Origin: an uncultured Clostridia bacterium
GTDB lineage: Bacteria; Bacillota; Natranaerobiia; Natranaerobiales; Natranaerobiaceae
Length of the DNA stretch: 42,391 nt
Assembly (NCBI GenBank): GCA_964487675.1
Contig: CAZARY010000001.1
Coordinates: forward strand, 1-42,391
Direction: 5' to 3'
Shown: in pieces, positions 6,628 through 38,200 of the stretch
Position numbering within the stretch: position 1 is the first letter of the stretch
How the letters are laid out: every line of letters starts with the position of its first letter
Notes under the pieces: generated by a model
What the model was told of the DNA's origin: nothing
Databases searched by the model: none
The model's input: the letters and a program-made list of their open reading frames with translations, nothing else
Translations under genes and position numbers: made by a program

Positions 6628-6678
6628 TTAAAGTCAATTAATTTACTTACGAAGTGCGCTCTACGTGTGTCTTACATC

Positions 6679-6716: not shown

Positions 6717-6846
6717 AAAGTTATTATACTATTTTTGAAAGATTTTATTTGTAAACCAGGTATTTAAAGAGCAATGGGAATGGCCTTATGACTCAGGGCA
6801 TTCGGTTACAAGTAACTGGCCTGCAAATTGATATTCTCACCATTTT

Positions 6847-14031: not shown

Positions 14032-14985
14032 ATGAACGATAACAAGATTGTAGATGTAAATGACTTAAAAAAATATTTTTCTTCGCAACAAGGTCAACTA
14101 CATGCAGTAGATGGGGTTGACTTTCACATATTTGATGGAGAGACTTTAGGTCTTGTCGGGGAAAGCGGTTGTGGCAAGTCAACGACTGGACGCTTATTGA
14201 TCAGGTTAATTGAAAACACAGGTGGCGAGGTTTTATTTAAAGGAGAAAATGTTTTTGAATTTGGAAAAGTAAAATTAAAAGAATTCCGCAGAGCAGCGCA
14301 AATTGTCTTTCAGGATCCTTTTTCTTCTTTGGACCCGAGAATGAGTGTTTCAGATATAATCTCTGAACCCTTGCAAGTCCATCGCATATTTAATAGCTCC
14401 CAGGAAAGATCAAAAAAAGTGGAAGAACTGATGGAAGTGGTGGGGTTGGCCAAAAGATCAGTCAATTCCTATCCTCATGAATTGGATGGTGGCAGCCGGC
14501 AGAGAGTAGGCATTGCCAGGGCCCTTTCTTTAAACCCGGATTTTTTGGTATTAGACGAGCCGGTATCTGCTTTAGACGTGTCGATTCAGGCTCAAATTAT
14601 CAATCTTTTCGATGATCTGCAACAAGAATTTAACCTCACTTATCTTTTTATCGCACATGACTTGTCCGTTGTGAAGCACGTCAGTGACAGAATAGCTGTG
14701 ATGTATATGGGCGAGATAGTTGAACTAGCAGATTATGATAAAGTGATTTTTGAACCAAAGCACCCGTATACCCAGGCACTGGTTTCTGCCATACCGAAAA
14801 TGGAACTTGAAGCAGAGGACGAAAAAATCATTCTTGAAGGCGACGTACCGAGCCCAGTTAACCCTGCGGATTACTGCAGATTTTACGGAAGATGCAGAAA
14901 AAGAATGGATATGTGCAAAGAAAAATCGGTGTCTTTGCAGGAAATAGAACCGGGAAGATTTGTCAGTTGTTTACTTTATCAATAA
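14032..14985 (+). CDS. ABC transporter ATP-binding protein (DppF/OppF type)
   Basis: Walker A GESGCGKST, signature LDGGSRQRV, Walker B FLVLDEPVSALD. Confidence 0.9.
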   Translation: MNDNKIVDVNDLKKYFSSQQGQLHAVDGVDFHIFDGETLGLVGESGCGKSTTGRLLIRLIENTGGEVLFKGENVFEFGKVKLKEFRRAAQIVFQDPFSSLDPRMSVSDIISEPLQVHRIFNSSQERSKKVEELMEVVGLAKRSVNSYPHELDGGSRQRVGIARALSLNPDFLVLDEPVSALDVSIQAQIINLFDDLQQEFNLTYLFIAHDLSVVKHVSDRIAVMYMGEIVELADYDKVIFEPKHPYTQALVSAIPKMELEAEDEKIILEGDVPSPVNPADYCRFYGRCRKRMDMCKEKSVSLQEIEPGRFVSCLLYQ

Positions 14986-15055
14986 AATACAATAAAATAA
15001 TGGATAGATAAGCAAATTATCAGAAAAAATATTAATCACAAAGTGGGGAGAGCAT

Positions 15056-15778
15056 ATGCAACCGGTCATTGGGATAACAATTACGACTAGAAAAGGGTTT
15101 ACTGAATATTACGTGAATGCAGTAGAAAAAGTAGGCGGGATTCCCATTGTGTTACCCATTCTTGAAGATACCAGTCAGATTCAACCTATCTTGAAAGAGC
15201 TGCATGGCGTTATTTTTACTGGGGGCACAGATATAAACCCTTTTTATTATAATGAGGAACCGAGATACGGATTAGGAGAGGTCAAACCTTACAGAGATGA
15301 GCACGAATTTAAGCTTTTAGAATTATGCTTAGAAAAATTTGAGGGTCCAGTTATGGGGATATGTCGTGGGATGCAGTTGATTAACGTGTTACACGGCGGC
15401 AGTATGTATCAGTGTTTAGAGCAAGATAGATCTGATGGTATTATGCATGCACTCATAGAAAGATATCCTTTGGAGTATCCCTCGCATTTAGTGTATCTAA
15501 AAGAAAATAGCTGGCTTTTTAAAATATGTGCGCAACAAACTCTTTATGTAAATAGCTTGCATCACCAGGGCGTTAAAGAACTGGGTAAATCTTTGAAAGT
15601 GTCAGCAAGAGCCGGAGATGGTTTGATTGAAGGGATAGAAAGAGAAGGCGAACGCCTGGTGTTCGGGTTGCAGTGGCACCCTGAAATGATGATGGAAAAA
15701 TCTTTTGAAGCGCGTAAAATATTCACGGATTTTGTGCAAGAATGTAAGTACTTTCAGAAAAATGAGACAAAATTATAA
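15056..15778 (+). CDS. Class I glutamine amidotransferase-like / peptidase C26 (gamma-glutamyl hydrolase family)
   Basis: Nucleophile motif GICRGMQLIN and a QWHPE histidine motif. Same strand as the ABC importer and directly downstream of it. Confidence 0.85.
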   Translation: MQPVIGITITTRKGFTEYYVNAVEKVGGIPIVLPILEDTSQIQPILKELHGVIFTGGTDINPFYYNEEPRYGLGEVKPYRDEHEFKLLELCLEKFEGPVMGICRGMQLINVLHGGSMYQCLEQDRSDGIMHALIERYPLEYPSHLVYLKENSWLFKICAQQTLYVNSLHHQGVKELGKSLKVSARAGDGLIEGIEREGERLVFGLQWHPEMMMEKSFEARKIFTDFVQECKYFQKNETKL

Positions 15779-15843
15779 AGAACAGAGGTCAGTCATTCAT
15801 GAAGGCAACCGACATTTAATTTACCCACAGGGAGTGGCGAAGC

Positions 15844-16881
15844 TTGAAATCTTTTAGCCGGCGGAGTTTTTTTAAGTGGATTTTGAGTATCGCAGCTGGG
15901 ATCTTGCTGATGGGATGGAATTTTTTGACGAATAAGAAGGATAGAGCATCTATTTCGGCAGATCAAAAAATATCGCTCAGACAAAATGTTAAAGGAATTG
16001 ACAATCGATTGCTCGAAAAAAGAAATTTAACCCATAAGCTTGTCCCCGTTTCCCAGCGAAGATTGGGTAAGACGGGGGTTTTTGTCAGTTTGCTGGGCAT
16101 AGGTGGCAGCGGCATCATTGCCCGAGAAGATGCAAAGGAAGTGGTCCATGAAATTTTTGATCATGCCTTGGCAAACGGTGTTAACTATATTGATACCGCG
16201 CCTACATATGGTGCTAGCGAAAGCAACATCGGAGAGGCAATTAGAGGTAGAAGAGAAAAAGTTTTTTTAGCCACTAAAACTTTAGCTCGGGGATATGACG
16301 AAACCATGCGGTTATTTCATCAGAGTCTTGAACGCCTTCAAACGGAATATATTGATTTGTATCAAATCCACGGCATTAGCAATGAAGCGGACCTGGCTAT
16401 GATTGAAGAGAAACGGGGCGCTGCCAGGGCTGTTTCAGAACTTAAGCAAGAAGGCTTAGTCCGGTTCATTGGTGTGACCGGGCATAATTATCCAGATTTA
16501 CTCCATAGAGCCATTAAATCAATGGCGTTTGATTGTCTTTTGATGCCTTTAAACGTAGGGGATATTCATGACAGACCTTTTCAAACTCAGCTTTTAACAC
16601 GGGCCAGAGAAAAGGACTTGGGCATCATTGTTATGAAAGCGATGGCGTACGGTCGTATTTTTCGGGAAAACGGCATTATTTCTGCCAAGCAAGCCCTTCA
16701 CTACACGTGTTCATTTCCTTGCAGCACGACTGTGGTTGGGGTATCCAGTTTGGAAGAAATGAAGGAAAATATATCCAACATGAAATCTTTCGAGGTGAAG
16801 TCAAAACAAGACTTAAATCGCCTGGAAGCGCTAACTGCTCCTTATAAACGGGATATGAACTTTTTTAAACATGAATGGTAA
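15844..16881 (+). CDS. Aldo/keto reductase with an N-terminal twin-arginine (Tat)-like signal or anchor
   Basis: SRRSFFK followed by the hydrophobic WILSIAAGILLMGW. The AKR core starts near residue 70 (RRLGKTG, GVNYIDTAPTYG, IDLYQIHG). Confidence 0.85.
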   Translation: MKSFSRRSFFKWILSIAAGILLMGWNFLTNKKDRASISADQKISLRQNVKGIDNRLLEKRNLTHKLVPVSQRRLGKTGVFVSLLGIGGSGIIAREDAKEVVHEIFDHALANGVNYIDTAPTYGASESNIGEAIRGRREKVFLATKTLARGYDETMRLFHQSLERLQTEYIDLYQIHGISNEADLAMIEEKRGAARAVSELKQEGLVRFIGVTGHNYPDLLHRAIKSMAFDCLLMPLNVGDIHDRPFQTQLLTRAREKDLGIIVMKAMAYGRIFRENGIISAKQALHYTCSFPCSTTVVGVSSLEEMKENISNMKSFEVKSKQDLNRLEALTAPYKRDMNFFKHEW

Positions 16882-20709: not shown

Positions 20710-20729
20710 GCAGGTTTTTCAAATATTAT

Positions 20730-22043
20730 TTAGTCTTCAAAAACTGTCTGGAGTTCTATTTCGGTTTCAAGCGCTTTTAGAGCTTTTTCTAGCAGCTGTT
20801 TTCTCAATTTGTATTCATCGTCATCGTCCAGGTTGGGATCGCCCAAAGGATGTGGAATGGCCACAGTTGGGATGATCCTGTTGGCGCCAACCGTTTTGGA
20901 AATGGGTACGATAGAGGCCATGTGAACAGCAGGCAGTCCATTATTTTCATATTCTTTTACCATCGTTGCACCGCAACGCGTACAAGTACCTCAAGTAGAA
21001 GTGTGGATAACGGCATCCACGCCAGCTTCTTTTAAGTCTTGTGCGATTTCATAGGCGAATTGTTTTGCATTTGCTACTGAAGTACCATTGCCTACTGTGG
21101 AATAATAATACTCATGCAGTTCGCCAATTCGCCCTTCTTTTACAAGCTCCCGGGCCGCATCTAAGGGGAGGACCCTGTTGGGATTTTCATTGGCGTAGGT
21201 AGGATCGTATCCACCATGGGCTGTTTCATAATTATCGGCAGTGACACTTTCAATGTCTTTGATTTCATATTTGCCATATTTTGAAGCGCTGGAGGCCTCT
21301 ATTCCATCGGGATTGCCTGTAGGCACAATACCTCCTGAGGTAACCAGGGCGATTTTCGCTTCTGCCATATTTTTAATAGGCGGCAGTATGGGTACTCGAT
21401 CGAACTGGGGCATTGGATATTCTGTTTTGAACGAGTCACCTTTTAATTTTTTAACCAGCATTTCAACACCCCGGGCTGAGCCTCTTGCGTCGTAGAAAAC
21501 ATTTTTGCGAATGCCCCGTGGAATGTAGCCTTCTTCTTCAGGGGTACCTAATTCTTCACCTCGGAGAATTTTCTTAGCCAGTTTGGCCATGGCTGGGACA
21601 GCACTCCGCATTCCAGCTGCAGAATTAGAGGTTTCCACAATGTAGGCAAATTTTCTATACATTTCTACCCCGGGGTTTTCGGTATACATGCCTGAAACGA
21701 CTGGAATCTCATAATTTGCGTTGACCAGCTCGGCCACTCCCCCTGCTGCGGTTCCATACCTCCCAGCGTTAAAAGCAGGCCCTGTAATGACTAGGTCAGG
21801 TTTGTATTTATCAATAGCCTCTCGTACTTTTTCTTCTGCTTGTTCAGTGTTGGATGAATAGTAATCATCACCGCAAATGATTGTGGCAACAATTTGTGCT
21901 TCATCGCCGAGCTCCCCATTCAATGCATTACCAGGTCCTACAGGCCCTTCTTCTATATAAGGTGGGGTCGTGGCTTTTTCTTCGCCGCCTAATCCGGCAA
22001 AATACTGGTTAATATAGTGAACAATTTTTTTGCTCAATTTCAA
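20730..22043 (-). CDS. grdB: Glycine/sarcosine/betaine reductase complex selenoprotein B (GrdB/GrdF/GrdH family), with in-frame UGA selenocysteine at 20991-20993
   Basis: The listed 350-aa and 77-aa ORFs are in the same frame and separated only by TGA. Read-through gives VIHTST-U-GTCTRCGATMVKEYENN, the conserved UxxCxxC centre of selenoprotein B. The N-terminus HYINQYFAGLGGEE is typical. The likely start is TTG 22037, 6 nt after AGGAGGG. Confidence 0.9.
20964..20993 (-). promoter_or_regulatory. UGA(Sec) codon plus candidate bacterial SECIS hairpin
   Basis: 12 nt downstream of the UGA, the mRNA reads CGUUGC-GGU-GCAACG (20978-20964): a 6-bp stem with a G/U-containing apical loop. This is the position expected for a SelB-binding element. 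Confidence 0.55.
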
Positions 22044-22133: not shown

Positions 22134-23420
22134 TTACACGTCTTCGGCCGCTAACTTTTCAAAGCCCAATTGGTTGGTAGACCCAATAATTGCTTGCAGC
22201 TCTACCTCTATAGATTTATCGTGACGTAAACTGCCTTCGAAACCACCGGCAATAGTGTCAGCAGTTTCCAGAATGCCGATAACTTTGTCCATGGGCGGGA
22301 TCACTATGGTTTCATTAGCGTTCCCCACGGTGACCACGGCATCAGCTTTAGGATTCGCATCGGCTAACCCCTGGGAAGCTCCATCTCTTCCTGCATACTC
22401 GTCCGTCACAAGCACGGTTTTAATCCCTTTGTCTTCTATTTTGACACAGTTCATAATCAAGTCGGTATCGGGGTTACCAAAGCCTTCTTCAGAGATTATA
22501 ACTCCATCAAAGCCTAGCTGTTCTGCCAAGTTGGCAGCAAAGTTGGAAGATCTTTCTTTATCAGCTAAAGTTACGTTTTCATTGGTGATAATGACGCCAC
22601 AGAAATTCAGATCTTTTCCATGTCTTTCATACAAGTCTTCGATGATGGGGTTGTTTATGTGATGGAATGTAGAATTTTTATCGCAAGCAGAAACACAGTT
22701 TCCACTTACTATTGCACCGTCCATGACTTCAGTGGGATAAATAAATGTGGGTATGATCTGCTTCGCGTCCACCCCGTACACCCAGGTATCGTGCAGCAGG
22801 CCTTGACTTTGCAGCATGTAAACATAACCTACTTTTGGAAGATCAGGGTACTTTTCACGCTGCTCCATAAAAGGTAGGGCTTCGTAATGAATTTTATCGT
22901 CTGCAGTAGCTTCTTTACAAGCATCGCCAATGTGTTTGGCCGCTTTTAAACCAGCAAGTCTCACAGCTTCTTCATGTTCGGAAGCTTTCAGGCCGCTTAC
23001 CGGGGTGCAGTTTACTACTAGGTTGACGGTTTTTGAGAAATGGCAATAATCAGCGCCTGGACCATCCATATCTATAATCCCTTCTTGAAAACCTACCAAT
23101 TTGCCTGTAGTCACTATTGTCATCCCTTTTAAGGCTTTAGTGACGCCACTCCCTACAGTATCCACTTTGTTTAAAATACCAGGAAACAGGCCACCGTTTC
23201 CTTCAACTTTTGTTCTCGGTTCGATGACGTCTTTAACGGGTATGATTCTGACAGATTCTCCCGGTTTCGCTATGTCTAGTTCTACGGAGTCAATGCGATC
23301 ATCTTCTAAAATCGCCTGGGTTAATTCATCTTTATTGACTGTAACGACGTTTCTAGAAAAACCAGTTTGACTGCCAAATTGCACATCTTTTACGTTTACT
23401 TTTTCAAGAGTTAAACTCAT
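22134..23420 (-). CDS. grdE: Glycine/sarcosine reductase component B alpha/beta proprotein (GrdE/GrdG family)
   Basis: 428 aa. Contains DMDGPGADY, and SGN-C-VSACDKN places the Cys at residue 242 by my count, matching the autoprocessing (pyruvoyl-forming) cysteine of GrdE. RBS AAGGAGGTGA. Lies 90 nt upstream of grdB. Confidence 0.9.
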   Translation of the reverse strand: MSLTLEKVNVKDVQFGSQTGFSRNVVTVNKDELTQAILEDDRIDSVELDIAKPGESVRIIPVKDVIEPRTKVEGNGGLFPGILNKVDTVGSGVTKALKGMTIVTTGKLVGFQEGIIDMDGPGADYCHFSKTVNLVVNCTPVSGLKASEHEEAVRLAGLKAAKHIGDACKEATADDKIHYEALPFMEQREKYPDLPKVGYVYMLQSQGLLHDTWVYGVDAKQIIPTFIYPTEVMDGAIVSGNCVSACDKNSTFHHINNPIIEDLYERHGKDLNFCGVIITNENVTLADKERSSNFAANLAEQLGFDGVIISEEGFGNPDTDLIMNCVKIEDKGIKTVLVTDEYAGRDGASQGLADANPKADAVVTVGNANETIVIPPMDKVIGILETADTIAGGFEGSLRHDKSIEVELQAIIGSTNQLGFEKLAAEDV

Positions 23421-26835: not shown

Positions 26836-27077
26836 AGAGTATTTTTCCTCCTTGGTTTATAAGGGTTCTACAGGGGTTATGTAGCACAATATTATCACAT
26901 ATACCCAGTTTGCTTCCCTCAAATTAAATTCCCTAATAGTATTGTATATGAGAGGCACCATGCTGTAAAACTTTCTTTTTTTTCCGAGAGGTTTTTGATA
27001 AGATAAGATTAAATAGTAAGTGCTTTTTCGTATACTTCACATAGATTTATCAATACGGCTAAAGGAGCGATTAATCC

Positions 27078-27983
27078 ATGGCTTTAAATCGTGAAGATAG
27101 GGCGAGAATTGCCCAAGAAACCCTTGATATTGTAAATCAAGGTTTTTATTATAATCGAAAAGGCGAAAAAATCGATGTTTCCATGGATATTGAAAGCGCA
27201 AAGAAGTATGCTAAGCTTTATTGCGCGGAAAAACTTGAAACAATTGGTAGAAAGGCAAAGGAAAAATTATATGAAAAATCAAGCAATATTGAGCATCATG
27301 ATTCGTTTGAGGCGAGCGGTCAAGATTTTTATCTTGAAGTCACCAATGAAACCACTCTTTCCGCTGCTAAAAGGTTGTATGATCAAGGATATGACGTGGT
27401 ATGCTTAAACTTTGCTTCTGCTCGAAATCCGGGAGGAGGCTTTTTGAAAGGGAGCGATGCTCAAGAAGAAAGCTTGGCGCGTGCTTCTGCTTTGTATTCT
27501 ACATTAAAGACGCAGCCAGAGTATTACCGAATTAATAAAGCCTGTGAATCCGCCCTTTATACAGATAATATGATATATTCTCCTGGTGTCCCGGTGTTTA
27601 GGGATGACAATGGTGCTTTGCAAGATCGACCCTATAAAATATCCTTCATTACAGCTCCGGCAGTAAATGCCGGGGTAGTGGAAAAAAAAGAACCAGAGAA
27701 TATACCTTTCATTGGGGAAATCATGGAAAAAAGAATTCAATTAATATTGGCATTAGCTGCCTATCGGGGCCATAACGCTGTGGTGCTTGGTGCTTTTGGC
27801 TGTGGCGTGTTTAAAAACAATCCGGAAAATGTGGCAGGCTATTTTGCTGATTGCTTTTACGATAAGGCTGGAAACCCTTCCGGGTTTAGTTTTTTATTTT
27901 CTCACGTTACTTTTGCGGTGTTAGACCGCTCAAAGACAAAAAACACATATAGAATTTTTAGTCAAAAACTATCTAGGGGGTAA
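27078..27983 (+). CDS. Bacterial-type poly(ADP-ribose) glycohydrolase-like macrodomain protein (TIGR02452 / DUF2263 family)
   Basis: VVCLNFASARNPGGGFLKGSDAQEESLARASALY contains the GGG-X7-QEE PARG signature. The length of ~300 aa and the C-terminal LGAFGCGVFKN match the family. Confidence 0.8.
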   Translation: MALNREDRARIAQETLDIVNQGFYYNRKGEKIDVSMDIESAKKYAKLYCAEKLETIGRKAKEKLYEKSSNIEHHDSFEASGQDFYLEVTNETTLSAAKRLYDQGYDVVCLNFASARNPGGGFLKGSDAQEESLARASALYSTLKTQPEYYRINKACESALYTDNMIYSPGVPVFRDDNGALQDRPYKISFITAPAVNAGVVEKKEPENIPFIGEIMEKRIQLILALAAYRGHNAVVLGAFGCGVFKNNPENVAGYFADCFYDKAGNPSGFSFLFSHVTFAVLDRSKTKNTYRIFSQKLSRG

Positions 27984-27986
27984 TCC

Positions 27987-28250
27987 ATGTCTCGCCGCAA
28001 ATTAAAGTTAGATTTACACCCCATCTACAACAAAGGGGACCTTATCGATCAGTCACTTCATGAGACTTTTGATGAGGCAGAAGAAAAAAAGGCCAAAGAA
28101 TTAGAAATTATTTGTGGAAAGGGCTCGGGACAATTAAAGAAAAGGGTGCTCAAATTTTTAAATCGCAAAGATATTAAAGAGCGATATCACCGGGTAAAAA
28201 AGGACCCCAAAAATTTTGGCCGGGTTTTTGTGTATTTCCGTTGGAAATAG
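27987..28250 (+). CDS. Stand-alone Smr (small MutS-related) domain protein
   Basis: KLDLHP ... ELEIICGKGSGQLKKRVLKFL ... GRVFVYF follows the Smr pattern (LDLHG ... IIHGKGxGxL). It starts 3 nt after the PARG stop. RBS AGGGGG. Confidence 0.7.
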   Translation: MSRRKLKLDLHPIYNKGDLIDQSLHETFDEAEEKKAKELEIICGKGSGQLKKRVLKFLNRKDIKERYHRVKKDPKNFGRVFVYFRWK

Positions 28251-28321
28251 CTGCAAATTTGAAGAAAGATATCCAAAAATCGGCTTAAAACCAACTTGTT
28301 TCTATTAGAGGTGATGTATCG

Positions 28322-28969
28322 ATGGCAGACCTGTCACAGTTTATCTGTAATATTAAAAAAATATGGAATTACAGTGAAAGGCTTCCAGAAGATGCAGCTT
28401 CCTGGCAAGGAGTAAAAATTCTACATTTGAGCGATACTCCCACTGAAATATACGGCAGTTTGGAAAAAATGCTTCGTTGCTTTAAACCTGATTATGTAAT
28501 TCACACAGGCGACTTGGCAGACGAAATAAAAATGGGCGATGAAATTGAGCAGTGTTGGCGCTACCAAAAACAAGTGAGAGATTTTTTCTTATGGTTAGAT
28601 CAATGTACTGACAAATTATTTATCAGCCCGGGAAATCATGATTCGATAGATATGCTGCAGAGTATTGTAAAAGAAGAAAGGTTGAATGTAGAAATTGTTA
28701 ACTGGGAAACTCCTGTTGAGATTGAAGGGAACGTATTTATTTGCGATCATTACCTGGAAAATGTGATCAAAAAATACCCTGTTGGCGATTGGTATTTGTA
28801 TGGACATAATTACGATTGTCCGGAAAATGAGTACGATATTAATCGTTTTTTAAATGGTGTCGCGGCTGTAAACATACTTTTACTACCAGGGGTTAAGGTT
28901 TACCGATTGCCTTATCCTAGGGGAACAGACTACTATCGTAAATATGATAAGCCTTTTAAACTCTTATGA
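28322..28969 (+). CDS. Calcineurin-like metallophosphoesterase
   Basis: ILHLSDTP (motif I), IHTGDLAD (motif II), SPGNHD (motif III), CDH, and YGHN (motif V). RBS AGAGGTGA. Confidence 0.75.
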   Translation: MADLSQFICNIKKIWNYSERLPEDAASWQGVKILHLSDTPTEIYGSLEKMLRCFKPDYVIHTGDLADEIKMGDEIEQCWRYQKQVRDFFLWLDQCTDKLFISPGNHDSIDMLQSIVKEERLNVEIVNWETPVEIEGNVFICDHYLENVIKKYPVGDWYLYGHNYDCPENEYDINRFLNGVAAVNILLLPGVKVYRLPYPRGTDYYRKYDKPFKLL

Positions 28970-29018
28970 GTCAATCGTAGGTCTGCAGCAGTCAATTGAA
29001 CGATTTGGAGGTTTTTGT

Positions 29019-30092
29019 ATGCTATTTATTCGGCGTGGTCCGCTGATCATTTTTTTTGCTTCCGAGAATCCGAATGCGTTTAATCAAGTTTTACAGGAAA
29101 ATAGCAGCTATCAAGGCTGCACCAGCAGTATTTCGTGTGCTTCAGAAAATTCTTTGAACTTAAAAGCGATCCTATGTGAAGCGATGGAAAAAGCGGGTGA
29201 AGCAGATACGATTGCAATTATTCATTATCCTCGGAAAAAAGATGCGTCGCTCCTATCTTGTGTAGAGCATGTATTAGCCATTTATGATACACCTACTAAT
29301 CTATTGACGTATTTAATTAACCAGGGGCAGACCAAGTCTATTCAGCAGGTAACCCCGGGCCCTTCTATGTTAGTGGTAAGACTGCCCGGGGATGCTCAAA
29401 AGATTATAGACAGAATCCAAGAAATTTACGAAGCCGACAGGACTACCGTAGAAGGTGCGATTGCTGAAGGCACTCAAAAAGCCACCATGATTTTTTTCTC
29501 TGAACAATCTATTGACAGGGTGCTCACAAGAAATGATATTTTGGAAGAGGTTTTAGTCAGTTCGGCTTCTCCTTTGTCTATCTATCGTGATATAAGAAAA
29601 AATGCTATCCGATACTTTGCTGTGGGGCTCGATAAATCCAGTTGGTACGAATTAAAAATTAATATTTATGATGCCAATGAGCAGTATAAACTTCATTTAG
29701 AGCGCTTATACCTAGTTTTGACAGAGCTAGAAGCCGGTTTTGCGTTAGCGGAAGAATGGACTAGTGACCAGGCATTTGTGCTTTTTGCAGTGCCCGTTTA
29801 CCAGGTAAAAGTTGTTTCTCTTATAGCGCCCGAGCAATTCAAGAAGATATTGATTGGGTTGGAATATGGTGACAGGGGTGAAAGGATTGTGGATATGGAT
29901 CTGTATTACAGAAATCGAAAGATTGAGCGGAATCATTTGAAGGAAATGCGGCAATACAAAAAAGAAGAAAGTGGAAAAATTTGCAGGCAGGCACTTTTAG
30001 GTAAATTGTCTGCCAAAACCTCGGAAAGCCTAAAACAATTGGAATCCAATATAGGTCTTGATATTCACAGTAATAGGGAGGGGTCCGAGTAA
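29019..30092 (+). CDS. Hypothetical protein (357 aa), family not recognised; weak CitX-like motif in the C-terminal part
   Basis: Long ORF. ATG 29019 lies 7 nt after GGAGG, and the stop overlaps the next ATG (TAATG). I recognised no confident domain. GERIVDMDLYYRNRKIER loosely recalls the GRLxDIDV...SR segment of holo-ACP synthase CitX. Confidence 0.6.
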   Translation: MLFIRRGPLIIFFASENPNAFNQVLQENSSYQGCTSSISCASENSLNLKAILCEAMEKAGEADTIAIIHYPRKKDASLLSCVEHVLAIYDTPTNLLTYLINQGQTKSIQQVTPGPSMLVVRLPGDAQKIIDRIQEIYEADRTTVEGAIAEGTQKATMIFFSEQSIDRVLTRNDILEEVLVSSASPLSIYRDIRKNAIRYFAVGLDKSSWYELKINIYDANEQYKLHLERLYLVLTELEAGFALAEEWTSDQAFVLFAVPVYQVKVVSLIAPEQFKKILIGLEYGDRGERIVDMDLYYRNRKIERNHLKEMRQYKKEESGKICRQALLGKLSAKTSESLKQLESNIGLDIHSNREGSE

Positions 30093-30556
30093 TGAATGCC
30101 TACGAAAAAAAGTTAGCTGAGTACATGAAAGAAAACAATGTCGGAGCGGAACATTTAATTTTTGAGCAAACCTGTCATTCAGTAAGCGAGGCTGCCAGTG
30201 CGGTTGGGGTTACTGCAGAAGATTTTATTAAAAGTATCTGTATGAACTCCAGTAAAGGAGATTTGATTGTGACGATTGTTAAAGGAGAGGATAGAGCTAG
30301 TCTTTCCAAGGTTAGGAAAGCCTTAAATATTAAACGCCCATGGACTTTATCTCCTGAAGAAATACTTGCCCAAACCGGTTACCCCGTAGGGGGAGTTCCT
30401 CCGTTTGGATATAACGCGACTTTTCTAATCGATGAACGCGTATTGCAGAAGGAAATTGTCTTTGGGGGTGGGGGATCTGAAAAGGCCTTGATTAAAATTT
30501 CTCCAGAAGAATTAAAAAGGGCTAATGAGGGAGCTGTAAAAAATATTAGAAAATGA
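30092..30556 (+). CDS. YbaK/ProX-type aminoacyl-tRNA deacylase (trans-editing domain) protein
   Basis: 154 aa. Contains KSICM, GYPVGGVPPFG and FGGGGS, typical of YbaK/EbsC/ProX. Translationally coupled to the upstream gene. Confidence 0.85.
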   Translation: MNAYEKKLAEYMKENNVGAEHLIFEQTCHSVSEAASAVGVTAEDFIKSICMNSSKGDLIVTIVKGEDRASLSKVRKALNIKRPWTLSPEEILAQTGYPVGGVPPFGYNATFLIDERVLQKEIVFGGGGSEKALIKISPEELKRANEGAVKNIRK

Positions 30557-30657: not shown

Positions 30658-30686
30658 TTGACAAGATACAAATTTAGACATATAAT
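30658..30686 (+). promoter_or_regulatory. Consensus sigma-A promoter for the thr leader
   Basis: TTGACA (30658-30663), a 17-nt spacer, then TATAAT (30681-30686), read directly. Confidence 0.75.
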
Positions 30687-30692
30687 AACAGA

Positions 30693-30962
30693 AAAATATA
30701 GTAACTGGCGATGAAAAGGAAAGTACAGTTGTTCGCATGCCAGTAACAGAGAATACCTGCCCCGGCTGGAAACAGGTAGACTGGTTGACAACTGGAACAC
30801 CCCCTTGGAGCTAAGAGTTGAAAGCAAATTTCTTATTTGCAAGTAAGCTCGCTTGGCCGACCGGCCTTAATGGTGCAAGAGAACCATTTGAAAAATGGTT
30901 AAATTGGGTGGAACCGCGAGATAAGCTCTCGTCCCTTTAGTTGGGGATGAGAGCTTTTTTAA
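30693..30962 (+). promoter_or_regulatory. T-box riboswitch leader (probably threonine-specific) with terminator
   Basis: Stem I elements: GCGAUGA (30708-30714), AGUA, AGAGA (30748-30752), and a CUGGAAA distal loop. The candidate specifier region GACAACUGG (30887-30895) contains the Thr codons ACA and ACU. The T-box sequence is AAAUUGGGUGGAACCGCG (30901-30918). A terminator hairpin at 30924-30955 is followed by TTTTTT. The downstream genes are thrC-thrB. Confidence 0.85.
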
Positions 30963-31004: not shown

Positions 31005-32066
31005 ATGTGGAAAGGGCTCATCGAGACCTATCAAAAATATTTACCGGTAAAACCGGATTTTTTAGATATCAGTTTACAAGAAGGCAATACGCCTTTAATT
31101 TTCGCACCTTCTCTTTCTGAAATGGTGGGAGCCGAAGTTTATCTTAAATATGAAGGGTTGAACCCTACGGCTTCATTTAAAGACAGGGGCATGGTGGTTG
31201 CTGCGACCCAGGCACTGCATGAAGGGTCGGAAGCTGTGATGTGTGCTTCTACTGGCAATACATCGGCTTCTGCAGCTGCCTATGCTGCTAGAAGCGGCCT
31301 CAGATGTGTTGTCCTTGTCCCTCATGGAAATATCGCTTATGGGAAACTATCTCAGGCTCTGATACATGGAGCTGAATTGGTGGCGATAGATGGGAACTTC
31401 GATTTAGCGCTGAATATTGTCAAGGAAATAACGGATGAATACCCGGTCACCTTAGTGAATTCATTAAATCCTTATCGATTAGAGGGTCAAAAAACAGCAG
31501 CTTTCGAAATTTGTGACCAACTGGAAACAGCTCCGGAATATTTGGCCATTCCTGTTGGCAATGCAGGCAATATCACTGCTTATTGGAAAGGGTTTACCGA
31601 GTACTATGCAGCTGGAGAAATAGATCAAACTCCTAAAATGATGGGTTTTCAGGCAGCAGGGGCTGCTCCCCTTGTCAATGGCGCGCCAGTAGAGGAACCC
31701 GAAACCCTGGCAACTGCCATTAGGATTGGGAATCCTGCCAGTTGGAGCGGTGCTGTGCAAGCCGCTAGCGATTCGGGAGGGAGTATCTCCTCGGTAACAG
31801 ATAAAGAAATTATGGACGCTTATGCTCTAATGGCAAAAAAGGAAGGGGTTTTTGCAGAACCTGCCTCCGCAGCTTCCGTGGCCGGAGTTTTGAAATTAAG
31901 TCAAGCAAAGATTTTTCGATCTACGGATAAGATTGTTTGTGTCAATACTGGACACGGGTTGAAAGATCCAGATCGAGCCATTGAAGCGGTTCAATATCAA
32001 GAAAGAATTGTTTCTGCAGATAAAGAAAAAGTAATCCAGGCGATTTGGGGGGATAAACATGCGTAA
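31005..32066 (+). CDS. thrC: Threonine synthase
   Basis: PLP-lysine motif SFKDRGM, ASTGNTSASAAAYA, and a length of 353 aa. Confidence 0.95.
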   Translation: MWKGLIETYQKYLPVKPDFLDISLQEGNTPLIFAPSLSEMVGAEVYLKYEGLNPTASFKDRGMVVAATQALHEGSEAVMCASTGNTSASAAAYAARSGLRCVVLVPHGNIAYGKLSQALIHGAELVAIDGNFDLALNIVKEITDEYPVTLVNSLNPYRLEGQKTAAFEICDQLETAPEYLAIPVGNAGNITAYWKGFTEYYAAGEIDQTPKMMGFQAAGAAPLVNGAPVEEPETLATAIRIGNPASWSGAVQAASDSGGSISSVTDKEIMDAYALMAKKEGVFAEPASAASVAGVLKLSQAKIFRSTDKIVCVNTGHGLKDPDRAIEAVQYQERIVSADKEKVIQAIWGDKHA

Positions 32067-33015
32067 AAGTACAAATGAAGTTATGGTAAAAATCCCTGCT
32101 ACTTCCGCGAATCTTGGCCCAGGGTTTGATACCCTAGGCTTGGCATTAGATTTGTATAACTATGTAACCATAAGCTGGTCAAATAAATCTGAAATAGAAG
32201 TGAATGTGGAAGGATTCGGCCAGGAGCTTATGGATAACCAAGATGAGAATATGGTTTATCATGCTGCCAGAAAAGTCTTGAACCACTGTGGGGAAAATAA
32301 TAAAGGCTTATACATTCGTCTGGAAAATAATATTCCTTTTTGTAGAGGACTGGGGAGCAGTGCCGCTGCCATTGTAGGAGGAGCCGTGGCGGCCAATCAA
32401 CTGATTGGGGAGCCCATGGATAAAGAACAATTACTCGACCTAGTGTTTGATATTGAAGGACATCCAGACAATATTTTTCCGGCTATGTATGGAGGGCTTG
32501 TCGTCAGCAGCAATTGTGGTGATGAAAAAGCAGGAGAGCATAAATACATGTTCAAAAAAATTAATCTTCCCAGAGAGCTACAATTTTTGGCTGTAATACC
32601 AAAAGACCATCTCGATACTCAAATGGCCAGGCAAGCACTTCCCAAAATGGTTAAACATTCCGAGGCAGTTTATAATTTAGGACGGGTTTCATTATTGATT
32701 TTAGCTTTTCAAACGGCGGATTACAATCTCATGCATCATGCCATGAACGATTGCCTTCACGAGCAATACCGTGCCAAATTACTTCCGGGACTTTCAGAAG
32801 CACTGCATGAGCTCAGGGGATTTAGTATACCATCAGCCATAAGTGGTGCAGGCCCATCAGTTTTGGCCGTGGTTTCAAGTCGTGCCGAAGAGATAAAAAG
32901 GCAAATAGAAGATATTTTTAAACGCAAAGAATTGGAGTGTCATACCATATTTTTGCGTCCTGAAAACCAGGGTGCACAAATAATATACCAACATGAGGAT
33001 AGGAAGCGGGCTTAA
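32059..33015 (+). CDS. thrB: Homoserine kinase
   Basis: PATSANLGPGFD and the GHMP motif GLGSSAAA. Overlaps thrC by 8 nt. Confidence 0.95.
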   Translation: MRKSTNEVMVKIPATSANLGPGFDTLGLALDLYNYVTISWSNKSEIEVNVEGFGQELMDNQDENMVYHAARKVLNHCGENNKGLYIRLENNIPFCRGLGSSAAAIVGGAVAANQLIGEPMDKEQLLDLVFDIEGHPDNIFPAMYGGLVVSSNCGDEKAGEHKYMFKKINLPRELQFLAVIPKDHLDTQMARQALPKMVKHSEAVYNLGRVSLLILAFQTADYNLMHHAMNDCLHEQYRAKLLPGLSEALHELRGFSIPSAISGAGPSVLAVVSSRAEEIKRQIEDIFKRKELECHTIFLRPENQGAQIIYQHEDRKRA

Positions 33016-33146: not shown

Positions 33147-33566
33147 TTGAAAAAAGGAGAGAAAAACCCCTCCGTGGAGAAAAAAACGCTTGATAAAAGT
33201 AAATCTGGCGACGTGCCGCGCACTACCTGTGAAGAGTTTAGCTTTGATCCAGAAGCGGTTGAAAAAGTAAAAAGGCATATGCTAGGCACAAAAGAAATTT
33301 CTGGCATGGCCGAGACTTTTAAAGTTTTAGCTGATCCGACCCGAATTAAGATCTTACATGCGCTAAAATGCAGTGAATTATGTGTATGTGATCTGGCTGT
33401 GGCTCTAAATATGAATACATCAGCTATTTCACATCAACTTAGGGTTTTAAAAGGTGCCAGGTTAGTTAAAAATCGAAGAGAGGGAAAATACATCTATTAT
33501 TCTTTAGATGATCAGCACGTAGAAGTGCTTTTTGCTGAAACAAAAGAACATATACAGCATTTGTAG
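33147..33566 (+). CDS. ArsR/SmtB-family metal-sensing transcriptional repressor (CadC/CzrA-like)
   Basis: ELCVCDLA (alpha3 Cys pair), HQLRVLKGARLV recognition helix, a C-terminal DxHx10HxxH (alpha5-like site), and one N-terminal Cys. TTG start lies 8 nt after AAGGAGG. Confidence 0.9.
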   Translation: MKKGEKNPSVEKKTLDKSKSGDVPRTTCEEFSFDPEAVEKVKRHMLGTKEISGMAETFKVLADPTRIKILHALKCSELCVCDLAVALNMNTSAISHQLRVLKGARLVKNRREGKYIYYSLDDQHVEVLFAETKEHIQHL

Positions 33567-33589
33567 TACGTTATGGAGGAGGGGATGGT

Positions 33590-35752
33590 ATGAAATATCA
33601 CTTACAGGGGCTTGACTGCCAAGCTTGTGCGGCTAAGATAGAACAAAAATTAAAGACACTAGAGCATACGGAAGATATAAATTTTAACTGGGCAAAAATG
33701 ACAGTGGAGATTGCCCCTGAAGATTTCCAAGTAGCGCAAGCAATCATTGATAAAATTGAACCCGGGGTGAAACTTGTTCCTCTAGATAATGATTTTAACG
33801 CAGACAAGAAAGAAAACAAAAAAAAGGATTTATCATATAAAGAATTGCAGCCTTCAATAGTCAGAGTGGTTGCTTCATTAATCATTTTGTTAATAATTTT
33901 GGGTTTTCAAATTATCTTGGATGGCTATGTATATTCGGGCCTCGAAGCTCTATTTTATTTGATTCCCTACTCACTTGCAGGATTTCCGGTGATCTGGGGA
34001 GCCTTTAAAAATTTATATCACGGGCAAGTATTTAATGAGAAATTTCTCATGACAGTGGCCACAGGTGGAGCTTTCGCCATTGGTGAATATCCGGAAGCGG
34101 TGGCTGTTATGTTGTTTTTCGCTGTGGGAGAATTAATGCAGAATATAGCGGTGGCGCGCTCAAAAAACTCAATCAATGCCCTTTTAGATTTGAAACCTGA
34201 GACGGCTACTGTGGTATCTGAGAAGAAAAGATATGTAAAAAATGCCGATGAAGTTGAGCCGGGTGAAGTCATCGAGGTCAAACCCGGAGAAAGGGTTCCA
34301 TTGGATGGCAGTGTGCTTTGGGGTACTTCTTATGTGGATACGTCTGCGCTAACTGGCGAAAACGTGCCCAAAAAAGTTGACCCGGAAGAAGAGATTTTAG
34401 CAGGTTCTATTAACCAAGATGGCTTACTGCGATTGAAAGTGGATAAAAACCTGGAAAATTCAGCAGTGGCTAAAATACTTGACCTGGTTGAAAAAGCTTC
34501 CTCTAGAAAAGCTCCTACTGAAAGATTTATAACGGAATTTGCTGGTTGGTATACTCCGATAGTTGTGGGGCTAGCCGTCATATTGGCAGTTTTCCCCCCC
34601 ATTTTCTTGCCGGGGGCGGACTTCTCTGACTGGGTCTACCGGGCCTTGATTCTCTTAGTGATTTCATGTCCCTGCGCCTTAGTACTGTCCATTCCACTCA
34701 GTTATTTTGGCGGCATAGGTGCAGCGTCAAAAAAAGGTATCCTTATCAAAGGCGCTAATTTTATAGATGCCATGGTAAAACTTCATACAGTGGTTTTAGA
34801 CAAAACAGGCACTTTGACGAAAGGCGTCTTTAAAGTGGATGAAATTTTTCCATATAATGGCTACGACAAAAAACAAATTTTGGAATATGCGCTGGCGGCA
34901 GAAGAAAATTCTAACCATCCTATTGCACGATCGATTCGAGAAAAAGCGGCAGAAGCGCTCGGAAGTTGTATTCACACTTCGAGCGGCGTAGCTGATCACC
35001 AGGAAATAAAAGGACTTGGGACAAAAACGGCATTAAATAATGGGAATAAAGTGCTTATAGGCAACAAAAAACTATTGCACCAGGAGGGGGTAAGACTCCC
35101 CCACTTCGTGGCACAAGAAAAAAACAATGGCAAATCAATGCCTGGCACAAAAATACATTTGGCAGTTAACGGAGAATATGCAGGCAGGATCTCTATAACT
35201 GACGAAATTAAACCGAAAGCTACAACGTTGGTCAAAACATTAAAATTCCTAGGAGTTAAACGAGTGATAATGCTTACTGGAGATGATCAAAAAGCTGCAT
35301 CCGCCCTAGCGGAAGAGTTGAATATTGATGAATATTATGCCAGTTTACTCCCCCAAGACAAGCTGGCGCTTGTAGAAAGATTCCACATGAATTTAAGCGA
35401 TCGGGAGGAAAAGCTTGCTTATGTGGGTGATGGGATTAATGATGCGCCTGTTATTACCAGGGCGGATGTAGGCATGGCAATGGGAGCTTTAGGCTCAGAT
35501 GCTGCAATAGAAGCTGCTGACGTGGTGTTTATGGATGATAATTTAGAAAAAATATCGAATAGCATTCAGTTATCAAAACGAACTCGGAAGATCGTGCTAC
35601 AAAACATTGTTTTTGCCCTGGGCGTAAAAGGGTTATTCATGATCATGGCGGCTATAGGAATGACCAGTATGTGGGCCGCGGTGTTTGCTGATGTGGGTGT
35701 GACATTGATAGCTGTGATCAATGCAACACGAATACTGTATTTTGGCTATTAA
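33590..35752 (+). CDS. Heavy-metal-translocating P1B-type ATPase, Zn/Cd/(Pb/Co) CadA/ZntA type
   Basis: N-terminal HMA domain with GLDCQACAAKIE, plus SCPCAL (TM CPC), DKTGTLT, MLTGDD and GDGINDAP. The final TM segment FADVGVTLIAVINA carries the DxG characteristic of the Zn/Cd subgroup. Confidence 0.95.
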   Translation: MKYHLQGLDCQACAAKIEQKLKTLEHTEDINFNWAKMTVEIAPEDFQVAQAIIDKIEPGVKLVPLDNDFNADKKENKKKDLSYKELQPSIVRVVASLIILLIILGFQIILDGYVYSGLEALFYLIPYSLAGFPVIWGAFKNLYHGQVFNEKFLMTVATGGAFAIGEYPEAVAVMLFFAVGELMQNIAVARSKNSINALLDLKPETATVVSEKKRYVKNADEVEPGEVIEVKPGERVPLDGSVLWGTSYVDTSALTGENVPKKVDPEEEILAGSINQDGLLRLKVDKNLENSAVAKILDLVEKASSRKAPTERFITEFAGWYTPIVVGLAVILAVFPPIFLPGADFSDWVYRALILLVISCPCALVLSIPLSYFGGIGAASKKGILIKGANFIDAMVKLHTVVLDKTGTLTKGVFKVDEIFPYNGYDKKQILEYALAAEENSNHPIARSIREKAAEALGSCIHTSSGVADHQEIKGLGTKTALNNGNKVLIGNKKLLHQEGVRLPHFVAQEKNNGKSMPGTKIHLAVNGEYAGRISITDEIKPKATTLVKTLKFLGVKRVIMLTGDDQKAASALAEELNIDEYYASLLPQDKLALVERFHMNLSDREEKLAYVGDGINDAPVITRADVGMAMGALGSDAAIEAADVVFMDDNLEKISNSIQLSKRTRKIVLQNIVFALGVKGLFMIMAAIGMTSMWAAVFADVGVTLIAVINATRILYFGY

Positions 35753-36143: not shown

Positions 36144-37076
36144 ATGCATTTAAATATTAAAAAAGTGGATGTGAGTAAATTTATTGCCATGCTAGCAACA
36201 CTTATTTTATTTTTTTCTATTGTAAGTGCAGCTTTTAGTTATGCTAGCATAAAAGCATTAGATGAAGAGTTTCTACTAGAAACAATGGATGGAACAGACT
36301 TTTATCGTCGGGCCGACGAACTTTTCATCAAAGAACATTTCAATAATTGGGAAAGCATGCCAAGCGGCCAAAGGACAATAAATTTTTTAATATCGGAAAT
36401 CAATCGTGCCAGGATCTTACGAGAAAATGCGGAGAATTTTGTTCCTGAAGTGGTGGAATATGTTTCCGGCGAAGATGAGCGCATCGATATTACTGTGAGC
36501 ATGGAAGCGCTTGAAGAAGAATTAAAAGAAACATTGGGTGAATTTGATACATTTATGAAAATTCTAGATATAGAAATTCCTAGGGAAGCAGAGATCTTAA
36601 GAAATTTACCTCAAAACATGCAGGAAAATTTACATGAAGTGATAAAGCTTAATTTAATCGATCATATTCGCTTACCCGGGAAGATTCCTCTCGATTACTT
36701 GCTGGTGGAAATTGACCTGGAAAAGTATTTGGAGGATGCCCGGAATTATTACCAGCAGGTAGACATCATTTTAATAATTTCTATGGCTTTAAGTGTTTTT
36801 TTATGTATTCTTTTGTTTGTTTGGAGGAGGGATCAGGGACTTATTTGGGCCAGCTTTGCTTTATTGTTAAGTGGGGGCATGGTGGTTAGCTCTGCTGTAC
36901 AAAGAGAAATGACTGCACTGATTTTTCAACGGCTCACCCCCTCAGAACTTGCCTTGGCGGGAGACTTTGTGGTTGCTGCTATGAAGCAGGTGGATTATAT
37001 TGGTTATGCCCTATTAAGTCTAGGTGGCATCGGATTTTTGGGGGGGTTTATTTATCGCTTCTACCGCTCACTATAA
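36144..37076 (+). CDS. Hypothetical membrane protein (N-terminal anchor, ~190-aa extracytoplasmic region, C-terminal TM bundle)
   Basis: Long ORF with hydrophobic segments at the N-terminus and in the last ~100 aa. No family recognised and the RBS is weak. Confidence 0.6.
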   Translation: MHLNIKKVDVSKFIAMLATLILFFSIVSAAFSYASIKALDEEFLLETMDGTDFYRRADELFIKEHFNNWESMPSGQRTINFLISEINRARILRENAENFVPEVVEYVSGEDERIDITVSMEALEEELKETLGEFDTFMKILDIEIPREAEILRNLPQNMQENLHEVIKLNLIDHIRLPGKIPLDYLLVEIDLEKYLEDARNYYQQVDIILIISMALSVFLCILLFVWRRDQGLIWASFALLLSGGMVVSSAVQREMTALIFQRLTPSELALAGDFVVAAMKQVDYIGYALLSLGGIGFLGGFIYRFYRSL

Positions 37077-37256
37077 ATGGCATTTTTTGTAGTACCGTTT
37101 CACAATATTGGCGAAATCACCAACAGCAAGAAGTTCTTTGTAAACCCAGGCCATTAAAGGAAAAAGGATAGGGATTAATAAAAACTTAACCGGAGATGAG
37201 GTATAGGATGGCGCGGCGCTAGCCGGCATGTGTGTTTGTGGAATAGATTCAGATAT

Positions 37257-37631
37257 TTAAGAATAGCACCAACGCCTAAGCTTTTGACGGTATTTTTTCA
37301 CAGTTGGCGAGTTTGCATTACCACGTTTTTCCATCAAGGTGTTGAATCGCAAGGATTTTTCATTTTTTTGCTTTAACATCTTTTGTTTTTCCTCTGGCGA
37401 AGAGCACCTATCAATTAAATCGTCCAGGTGGACGATTTCTTTTTTGAGTTCCATTTCTTCCGGTAGGTAACCTGCATTTTTTAGCATCAAATAGCCTGCC
37501 CTCAATTCTTCGGGGACTTGGGAAAGATCATCTAACTGCAAAGGTTTTCCTTTGCCATCCAGGCAATCAAATTGTCCTTCTTCCTTTGCTTTTTTTATTT
37601 TTTTATCACATAGCTCTTCAATAAATCTCAC
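37257..37631 (-). CDS. DUF1992 (DnaJ-C28-like, YhdN-type) domain protein
   Basis: EEGQFDCLDGKGKPL ... AGYLMLKNAGYLPEEMELKKEI matches the DUF1992 pattern. The likely start is GTG 37631, downstream of GGAGGCGGGAGG; the listed TTG 37655 precedes the RBS. Confidence 0.75.
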   Translation of the reverse strand: MRFIEELCDKKIKKAKEEGQFDCLDGKGKPLQLDDLSQVPEELRAGYLMLKNAGYLPEEMELKKEIVHLDDLIDRCSSPEEKQKMLKQKNEKSLRFNTLMEKRGNANSPTVKKYRQKLRRWCYS

Positions 37632-38200
37632 AGTGCCTCCCGCCTCCTGTTTCAAAAGTAATTAATCATAAGCTCTCAACTTTTTTGACACAGCCCTATC
37701 CCCTAGGAGCCATAAAGATGCAAAATATATAAAATGACTGATATCAGCAAAAAAGCTGGTGGCAAATAGTTGGGCAACACAATTAAAAAGATCGCTCCTG
37801 GAAACGTCCACTAAGGATATTTATAGTGATTATAACATTCTCCAGCAGCAGCATGAAATCCTTATTTTCTTTGTTCTTGGTTTATTTATCCTTAGATTTT
37901 ATCACAGGTCCAAAATCGGTTGGTTAGTTTCACTTTAAAATTAACAGGTGTCTAACATACGAGGAAAAATTCATGTCACAGACTGGGTTTAGAAAGTGTT
38001 TGGATAAATTGACCTATCATAAATATTGAGTAAGGGCACTCGAAGGACTATTTTTGTGCACTAATAGTATTTGTACATTAATAACAACTGTTGAACTAGC
38101 AGGTCTGGATTACTTTGGATTAGAAATGAATTTATTAGATAGAATATTGTATGATATAATTAATAAAATAAAAAGAGATTTTAAGTTGTGCAAGTTAGCG

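Follow-up and report, generated by a model that had tools for sequence, protein, structure and literature searches.

A run of five co-oriented genes in the genome of an uncultured Clostridia bacterium (Natranaerobiaceae) raises the question of whether their products act together as one system. The run occupies positions 27078–30556 on the forward strand of contig CAZARY010000001.1 (GenBank assembly GCA_964487675.1), of which the whole stretch of 42,391 nucleotides (nt) analysed here is referred to as the window. It encodes, in this order, a PARG, a small Smr-domain protein, a metallophosphoesterase (MPE), a protein that we call the orphan, and a YbaK-type protein. A sequence-only reading had proposed that the five genes are one undescribed cassette acting on ribose or RNA ends. 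The gene order proved not to be conserved beyond a narrow clade, an outcome that this reading itself had named as refuting. The idea of a cassette holds only for the MPE and the orphan, which are strictly paired, whereas PARG, Smr and the YbaK-type protein are not conserved partners.

The explanation that we favour, and consider probable, is that independent units have come to lie side by side in this lineage, and are probably transcribed together in this genome, without making up one system. We regard the units as independent because their partners are missing from other PARG and orphan loci and because insertions separate them in relatives. Unit 1 is a bacterial-type PARG, from a family known to take ADP-ribose off poly(ADP-ribose) and off RNA 2'-OH and phosphate ends, beside a small and highly conserved protein with an Smr nuclease domain. 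Unit 2, the sole evolutionarily fixed module, is the MPE, translated just ahead of a CitX/HPPK-like protein of ~340 amino acids (aa), the orphan. Unit 3, a ProX/YbaK-type tRNA deacylase, has landed behind unit 2 in this genome only.

The metallophosphoesterase and the orphan form a conserved pair

A first homology search with the orphan returned ~30 clusters, among them a protein of Natranaerobius thermophilus (48% identity) and proteins of spirochaete metagenome-assembled genomes (~32%). An exhaustive profile search gave 185 representatives at 50% identity, nearly all of a uniform length of 325–350 aa, with named members from Tissierellia/Sedimentibacter and Peptostreptococcaceae. One candidate member, P0293 (1976 aa, 16 weak matches), was rejected; it looks like repeat noise, and its Pfam matches are only scattered unrelated fragments. 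The orphan loci came from a metagenome scan, which gave 73, and from five look-ups, and were searched by tblastn with the five window proteins.

In 61 of the 62 loci with enough sequence, an MPE gene lies directly upstream of the orphan gene on the same strand. The loci come from contigs of Natranaerobiales, Peptostreptococcales and Spirochaetia, and the two genes are mostly 10–20 nt apart or overlap. Distant pairs on a Peptostreptococcaceae contig and in assembly GCA_002754915.1 have gaps of 10–17 nt and unrelated housekeeping genes on either side, and another, on a 3-Mb contig of an ENA metagenome assembly, likewise lies between unrelated housekeeping genes. The single locus with ample upstream sequence and no adjacent MPE (L025, orphan at 6410–7435) carries a divergent MsrA/MsrB-like gene upstream. 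An apparent natural fusion of the two genes (locus L069, 1695–3041, an open reading frame (ORF) of 448 aa) was set aside as unreliable, since ambiguous bases fall right on the junction and also within the orphan portion.

Clustering of the neighbouring ORFs revealed no third gene conserved beside the pair, no other neighbour family being present in more than 12 of 75 loci. Likewise, no riboswitch or other Rfam element was found upstream of the pair in eight loci. A literature search found no paper that connects an MPE with CitX or HPPK, or a bacterial PARG with Smr. The MPE–orphan pair is a real, conserved and unannotated unit, which we found described nowhere. It is this two-gene module that is worth noting, with its compact and uniform family (185 clusters at the 50% level), its obligate MPE partner and its lack of annotation.

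The surroundings of PARG were examined separately. Among 8000 candidates scored, 7985 proteins matched at E ≤ 1e-20, and 80 genome loci from many phyla were fetched and checked for the partners by tblastn, phmmer and a purpose-built Smr hidden Markov model; the genome of the window itself is not among the 80. Only one of the 80, a locus of an uncultured Clostridia bacterium (L077), carries Smr, this MPE or the orphan nearby, and none carries YbaK. The recurrent neighbours are NADAR (30 loci), NrtR-type Nudix (26), Tpt1/KptA (13), Pnkp kinase–MPE phosphatase–ligase (11, in Paenibacillus), ARH (10) and macro (6). The usual company of PARG is thus made up of NAD/ADP-ribose and RNA-repair genes, all of which the window lacks. 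On the orphan side, PARG and Smr were absent from all ~60 loci outside N. thermophilus and L077, and the YbaK-type gene was absent from all ~160 comparison orphan and PARG loci. Taken as a set, the five genes co-occur in none of these ~160 loci.

These distributions bear on the proposal that the run as a whole is an eraser or repair cassette for RNA/tRNA ends that are ADP-ribosylated or otherwise ribose-modified, or a ribosome-rescue or defence module. They largely refute it, and we now consider it very improbable. In its favour are the tight spacing and lack of internal terminators in this genome, the 11–13 of 80 PARG loci that lie near Pnkp, which contains an MPE phosphatase domain, or near Tpt1, and the donor substrate of CitX, a protein that the orphan resembles, which contains a ribose–ribose link of the type that PARG cleaves. 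Moreover, the operon that contains the PARG of Deinococcus radiodurans also encodes an RNA/DNA ligase and a phosphatase/kinase (PMC11833690). However, none of the 79 PARG loci other than L077 carries Smr, this MPE, the orphan or YbaK; the ~60 MPE–orphan loci outside the clade all lack PARG, Smr and YbaK; YbaK is unique to the arrangement of this genome; and housekeeping genes and an opposite-strand gene split the block in relatives. The defence version found no more backing, as no PADLOC model was matched except a generic MPE one and no phage homologues of the orphan were found. That match, to PDC-S10, is weak (E 2e-5, 21.9 bits), the other four proteins gave nothing at E ≤ 1, and a search for viral structural matches returned none that was significant. 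It would be a mistake to pursue the five-gene system as a discovery, since experimenters would then be chasing a cassette confined to a single genome.

Four of the five genes co-occur, besides the window, only in N. thermophilus and L077, and there with insertions. The order in N. thermophilus is Tex–PARG–Smr–M20 peptidase–zinc ribbon (minus strand)–MPE–orphan–membrane protein–hydrolase–M20 (minus strand), and that in L077 is PARG–panC–Smr–zinc ribbon (minus strand)–MPE–orphan–membrane protein–hydrolase–M20 (minus strand). In the window, PARG–Smr–MPE–orphan–YbaK is followed by thrCB, an ArsR/P-type ATPase pair and then homologues of hyp317 and DJC28. The last two, an uncharacterised protein of 310 aa and a minus-strand protein with a DJC28_CD domain (36144–37655, with the homology to hyp317 and DJC28 at 36156–37631), are syntenic with N. 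thermophilus; they are unrelated genes that lie 6 kb downstream in the window and downstream of the MPE–orphan pair in N. thermophilus too. The YbaK, thrCB and ArsR/P-type ATPase genes fill the interval between the orphan and hyp317 in the window genome. Given these shared, unrelated flanking genes and the tolerated insertions, the closeness of PARG and Smr to the MPE–orphan pair reflects inherited, region-level gene order: vertical synteny and not selection for a cassette. The placement of the YbaK-type gene behind the orphan is lineage-specific and occurs in this genome only.

Two observations pull the other way. The 1-nt overlap between the orphan and YbaK genes suggests translational coupling in the window genome, and PARG, Smr, MPE and orphan lie within 3–5 kb of each other in three genomes. 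Since this proximity was retained despite orthologue identities of 38–65% (80–85% for Smr), a clade-specific functional link is possible, in which the PARG and Smr of Natranaerobiales were recruited to the pair, for example with PARG trimming a ribosylated adduct of the CitX-like enzyme. The same gene order in all three genomes and the high identity of Smr fit such a four-gene link. We nevertheless judge it improbable: the unrelated flanks are common as well (membrane protein, hydrolase and M20 in two genomes; hyp317 and DJC28 in the window and N. thermophilus), the insertions of panC, the M20 peptidase and the minus-strand zinc ribbon break co-transcription, and other Natranaerobiales have PARG elsewhere. 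Natranaerofaba carboxydovora and Natranaerobius trueperi both possess PARG with none of the partners nearby.

In these two genomes, PARG is followed on the same strand by a gene for a protein of 274–282 aa (L163, 8000–8824, and L164, 7934–8782), with no Pfam match or a weak IPT match only; this uncharacterised gene may represent another conserved partner of PARG within Natranaerobiales. The N. thermophilus locus (L001) also contains a group II intron at 14713–16459, ~6 kb downstream of the pair, with D1–D4 RNA domains and an RVT_1/GIIM reverse transcriptase ORF.

Anatomy and possible chemistry of the pair

The orphan matched no Pfam, NCBIfam or PADLOC family above threshold. The UniRef label of the N. 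thermophilus orthologue, 'DUF4868 domain-containing protein' (KwaB family), was not reproduced by Pfam scans of 30 and of 105 members and was discarded. The true start of the gene is the ATG at 29019 and not that at 28944: a GGAGG stands 7 nt upstream and the N-terminus MLFIRRGP is kept in all homologues, so the start at 28944 is an ORF-calling artefact. An AlphaFold2 model (pLDDT 85.4) shows several α/β units, a C-terminal β-α-β-β-α-β domain (residues ~205–301) and then helices. Across 105 diverse members, conservation lies almost wholly in the C-terminal domain, and the N-terminal α/β domains are poorly conserved. K275 and E282 are invariant in the 105, and W209, D218, R229, G240, E245, W247, Y261, R289, D292, D294, K301 and R323 are at least 90% conserved in the family.

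The sole Pfam family recurrently matched by members of the orphan family is CitX (PF03802; apo-citrate lyase phosphoribosyl-dephospho-CoA transferase, a holo-ACP synthase), in 22 of 30 members (best E 4.2e-5) and in 43 of 105. In an alignment with CitX sequences taken from eight annotated citX genes, K275, E282, R289, D292 and D294 of the orphan align one-to-one with K105, E112, R119, D122 and D124 of CitX. These five residues are invariant in the eight diverse CitX proteins, with identical spacing (K-x6-E-x6-R-x2-D-x-D). A profile–profile comparison with this CitX alignment gave E 6e-4 and 2e-3. The likeness has bounds: the orphan is twice as long as CitX, with ~200 extra N-terminal residues and a helical tail, and is paired with an MPE, whereas CitX is not. 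The ribose theme of the sequence-only reading survives to the extent that the substrate of CitX holds a ribose–ribose linkage, which makes the theme compatible with the data but does not prove it.

Structural comparison pointed to a second family. A Foldseek search of the orphan model against the PDB placed HPPK (FolK, 6-hydroxymethyl-7,8-dihydropterin pyrophosphokinase) in all of the top 17 positions (best E 6e-3, probability up to 1.0), and the best local profile match to E. coli HPPK pairs G-P-R-T-L-D-L-D with G-E-R-I-V-D-M-D, an R-x-x-D-x-D-like segment. The phosphate- and Mg-binding residues of HPPK, R92, D95 and D97, lie within G-P-R-T-L-D-L-D. The two proteins nevertheless differ, the orphan having no significant sequence likeness to HPPK, a modest TM-score, no folate genes nearby and another architecture and partner gene. 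The orphan profile gave nothing meaningful against the PDB sequences, HPPK included, and hhalign with E. coli FolK gave E 0.28–0.45, short of sequence homology. The N-terminal domains gave weak Foldseek matches to GlnK and to the C-terminal domain of NikR, both small ligand-binding folds.

A stand-alone homologue of the C-terminal domain, of 184 aa, is encoded on a 103-kb plasmid of Thermococcus nautili (NZ_OX281346.1, 50750–51304; L161, 4998–5552). It is matched by hhalign with a probability of 97% (E 1e-11) and keeps E-R-L-A-D-Y-D. The CitX/HPPK-like C-terminal domain is therefore an autonomous unit. Around the Thermococcus gene lie hypothetical genes and one that is MCM-like, but no MPE gene.

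Turning to the partner, the MPE belongs to PF00149 (E 3e-10, 41.2 bits against a gathering score of 21.5), and its AlphaFold2 model has a pLDDT of 87.7. The top Foldseek match is MJ0936 (1s3l, E 1.3e-6, TM-score 0.71 on the target), followed by LpxH, Mre11/SbcD and the inactive polymerase B subunits, with the matches to MJ0936, LpxH and Mre11 spanning E 1e-6 to 1e-4. The family profile matched the cyclic-nucleotide phosphodiesterase Rv0805/Icc in the PDB (E 8e-5). Invariant residues in the MPE family are H35-x-S-D38-T-P40, H61-T-G-D64-x2-D67-x2-K70, G-N105-x-D107, H143 and G-H162, together with N178 and R206.

With MJ0936, YfcE and Rv0805 (Icc, CpdA) the MPE shares fold and size, the motif-I Asp, GD, GN(H)D, the motif-IV His and the first motif-V His. 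It thus keeps five of the seven canonical metal ligands (D-x-H, G-D, G-N-H-D/E, H, G-H-x-H), whereas an invariant Pro stands in place of the motif-I His (SDTP) and motif V (G-H-x-H) lacks its second His. Invariant H35, H61, D67, K70, N178 and R206 set it further apart, as does its obligate pairing with a CitX-like gene. As two metal ligands are missing, the catalytic competence of the MPE is uncertain.

The closest relatives of the orphan, CitX and HPPK, both catalyse group transfers of an unusual kind, with triphosphates as donors. The gene anatomy, family assignments, conservation and motif match are observed, whereas the reaction of the pair, its donor and acceptor and what the MPE contributes are inferred. 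We propose, tentatively, that the pair is a transferase and phosphodiesterase couple making and cleaving a phosphodiester or pyrophosphate link. The CitX/HPPK-like domain would bind a donor of NTP or triphosphoribosyl type, with Mg2+ on D292 and D294 and with R289 and K275 on the phosphates, and the orphan would pass a nucleotidyl, phosphoribosyl or pyrophosphoryl group on to an acceptor hydroxyl. The MPE would cleave the resulting phosphoester, either reversing the transfer or processing its product, and the variable N-terminal α/β domains may select the acceptor or a regulatory ligand. More speculatively, and with greater doubt, the pair might be an undescribed two-enzyme system that installs and removes, or makes and degrades, a nucleotide-derived group by way of a phosphodiester or pyrophosphate bond, on a protein or RNA hydroxyl or as a new small-molecule signal. 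PARG, whose ribose–ribose target bonds resemble one in the natural substrate of CitX, might then have been recruited to it in Natranaerobiales.

Several observations weigh against this proposal. On the CitX side, no member reaches the gathering score of 25 bits (the window orphan scores 16 bits, E 0.01), and the profile–profile comparison is weak (E 6e-4 and 2e-3, at a probability of only 14–28%). Furthermore, hhalign of the orphan against the single E. coli CitX and FolK sequences gave no significance. The C-terminal C-x2-C...C...H cluster of CitX (C145, C148, C155 and H161) is absent from the orphan, and the orphan never stands beside citDEF or citG in the neighbourhoods examined. The likeness to HPPK is structural only, with a best E of 6e-3 and a TM-score of 0.44 on the target, for a match whose aligned query region is unreported. 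The MPE lacks two of seven metal ligands and resembles polymerase B subunits that are inactive, so its part in the pair could be non-catalytic, and no experiment on any family member was found in the literature.

The same data could be read in another way, with the pair as a small-molecule signalling or metabolic couple, in which the CitX/HPPK-like domain would make a cyclic or pyrophosphorylated nucleotide or cofactor intermediate by HPPK-like pyrophosphokinase chemistry and the Rv0805-like MPE would degrade it, or with the MPE as a non-catalytic structural subunit. That HPPK is the best structural match of the orphan, that the closest solved relatives of the MPE are Rv0805/Icc and the phosphodiesterase MJ0936, and that the orphan N-terminal domains weakly resemble GlnK and the NikR C-terminal domain would all suit a small-molecule couple; the loss of two metal-binding histidines and the matches to inactive polymerase B subunits would suit the structural version. 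We regard this as unlikely, however, because the pair is flanked neither by a riboswitch nor by pathway genes that recur, its surroundings hold no conserved gene for an effector or receptor, and the orphan sequence is nearer to CitX, a protein-modifying transferase, than to HPPK.

If the activity of the MPE–orphan pair were determined, it could reveal a new prosthetic-group attachment, reversible modification or signalling nucleotide in anaerobic Bacillota and spirochaetes, and an MPE subfamily whose metal site is non-canonical would gain a function as well. Since conserved gene pairs of unknown function are numerous, the lead is worthwhile and not exceptional.

PARG, Smr and the tRNA-editing protein

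The remaining three proteins are ordinary members of known families. PARG scored 268.2 bits with TIGR02452 (cut-off 50), covering positions 2–265 of 266, and 170.5 bits with PF10021 (cut-off 23.5, E 3.9e-50), and it matches PDB entries 3sig (E 3e-58) and 5zdb (E 4e-54). The PARG signature GGG-x7-QEE, within the range GGG-x6-8-QEE, reads NPGGGFLKGSDAQEE (G119–G121 and Q129–E131); both the signature and the diphosphate-binding loop GAFGCGVF are invariant in a 20-sequence alignment. The window PARG is predicted to be an active, ordinary enzyme of the bacterial type.

A 2025 study reported that bacterial PARGs strip ADP-ribose from the 2'-OH and 5'-phosphate ends of RNA, and that they can shield cells against an ADP-ribosyltransferase (ART) toxin that targets RNA (PMC11833690). 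The notion of an eraser of RNA ADP-ribosylation therefore has experimental support for the PARG family (PMC11833690), but it is already published and concerns PARG alone. In comparison with known bacterial PARG operons, such as the ligase–PARG–HD/PNK operon of D. radiodurans, the window PARG belongs to the same family and has an intact catalytic signature, whereas the window is without ligase, Pnkp, NADAR, NrtR/Nudix, Tpt1, ARH and macro genes, and the Smr neighbour is absent from the other 79 loci. A search of the window for ADP-ribosyltransferase, NADAR, Nudix/NrtR, Tpt1, ARH and further macrodomain genes found none, which bears out the earlier statement that no ADP-ribosyltransferase writer is visible in it.

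The Smr protein matches PF01713 over its full length (E 7e-13, 48.9 bits against 25.7, covering 1–77 of 77), and no relative with a solved structure was detectable by sequence. Its orthologues in N. thermophilus (L001, 5346–5609) and L077 (2230–2490) are 80–85% identical to one another and to it, in comparison with 38–65% for the other shared proteins, which shows the bare Smr domain to be under unusually strong constraint. It shares the full-length Smr domain with the ribosome-collision nucleases SmrB and MutS2 but lacks the N-terminal ribosome-binding extension of SmrB and the body of MutS2 and has no conserved partner; the MutS2 equivalog model gave 21.5 bits against a cut-off of 400, and neither the ribosome-binding extension nor a MutS2 context was found. 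The two Smr motifs read LDLHP and CGKGSG in the window protein, where the usual forms are LDLHG and HGxG.

The YbaK-type protein matches the general tRNA_edit domain PF04073 (E 8e-25), the only model that it passes. With TIGR00011, the equivalog model of the YbaK Cys-tRNA(Pro) deacylase, it reached 58.3 bits, below the cut-off of 153.25. Among proteins of solved structure, APE2540 and TTHA1699, both of ProX type, are closer to it than H. influenzae YbaK.

The five-gene run and its surroundings

An ORF map of the window shows the five genes tightly packed on the plus strand, with intergenic gaps of 3, 71 and 49 nt and then the TAATG overlap of 1 nt, in agreement with the spacing first described. 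The run was also correctly delimited by a divergent upstream region and an independent thr promoter downstream, the latter consisting of a consensus promoter followed by a T-box leader. The coordinates are collected in Table 1.

Table 1. The five-gene run and the regions that border it (positions in the window)
Feature	Position	Strand	Description
Divergent intergenic region	26836..27077	.	242 nt between minus-strand gamma-carbonic-anhydrase gene and PARG
PARG (TIGR02452 / PF10021)	27078..27983	+	301 aa
Smr-domain protein	27987..28250	+	87 aa, stand-alone
Metallophosphoesterase (MPE)	28322..28969	+	215 aa, MJ0936/Rv0805-like
Orphan, CitX/HPPK-like	29019..30092	+	357 aa
YbaK/ProX-type tRNA trans-editing protein	30092..30556	+	154 aa, PF04073
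Downstream boundary: promoter, T-box leader, terminator	30658..30956	+	ahead of thrC-/thrB-like genes 31005-33015

A ribosome-binding site, AAAGGAG, precedes the ATG of PARG. The divergent intergenic region is likely to be the promoter region for the plus-strand run, and a promoter scan gave only weak promoter-like matches within it. Downstream of the run, the consensus promoter (TTGACA-17-TATAAT, sigma-70-type, 12 of 12 matches) lies at 30658–30686, the T-box leader at 30702–30939 (RF00230, 108.9 bits) and its terminator at 30923–30956. The thrC- and thrB-like genes behind it were recognised by PALP and GHMP-kinase domains.

A terminator scan found no convincing intrinsic terminator within the internal gaps of the run, and a single transcript across the five genes is therefore plausible in this genome, judging from the sequence. 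A hairpin with a T-run at 29030–29056 lies inside the part of the orphan coding sequence that specifies the conserved RRGPLIIFF motif. The plus strand carries about two-thirds of all long ORFs in the window, and the GC skew is positive over most of it. Five close, co-oriented genes are therefore ordinary bacterial packing and no statistical anomaly.

Directly after the thr genes, at 33147–35752, the window encodes a CadA/ZntA-like efflux pair, consisting of an ArsR-family regulator and then an HMA-domain P-type ATPase for heavy metals. On the minus strand, at 20729–22043, lies a gene for the selenoprotein B of glycine/sarcosine/betaine reductase (PF07355, E 6e-166), with a gene for a component B alpha/beta subunit upstream of it at 22134–23420. 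The apparent end of the selenoprotein ORF is an in-frame TGA directly before a SECIS_4 element (62.6 bits, 20953–20990), and the frame runs on to ~20729. The in-frame TGA and the SECIS element of this gene indicate that the organism is a selenocysteine-using anaerobe.

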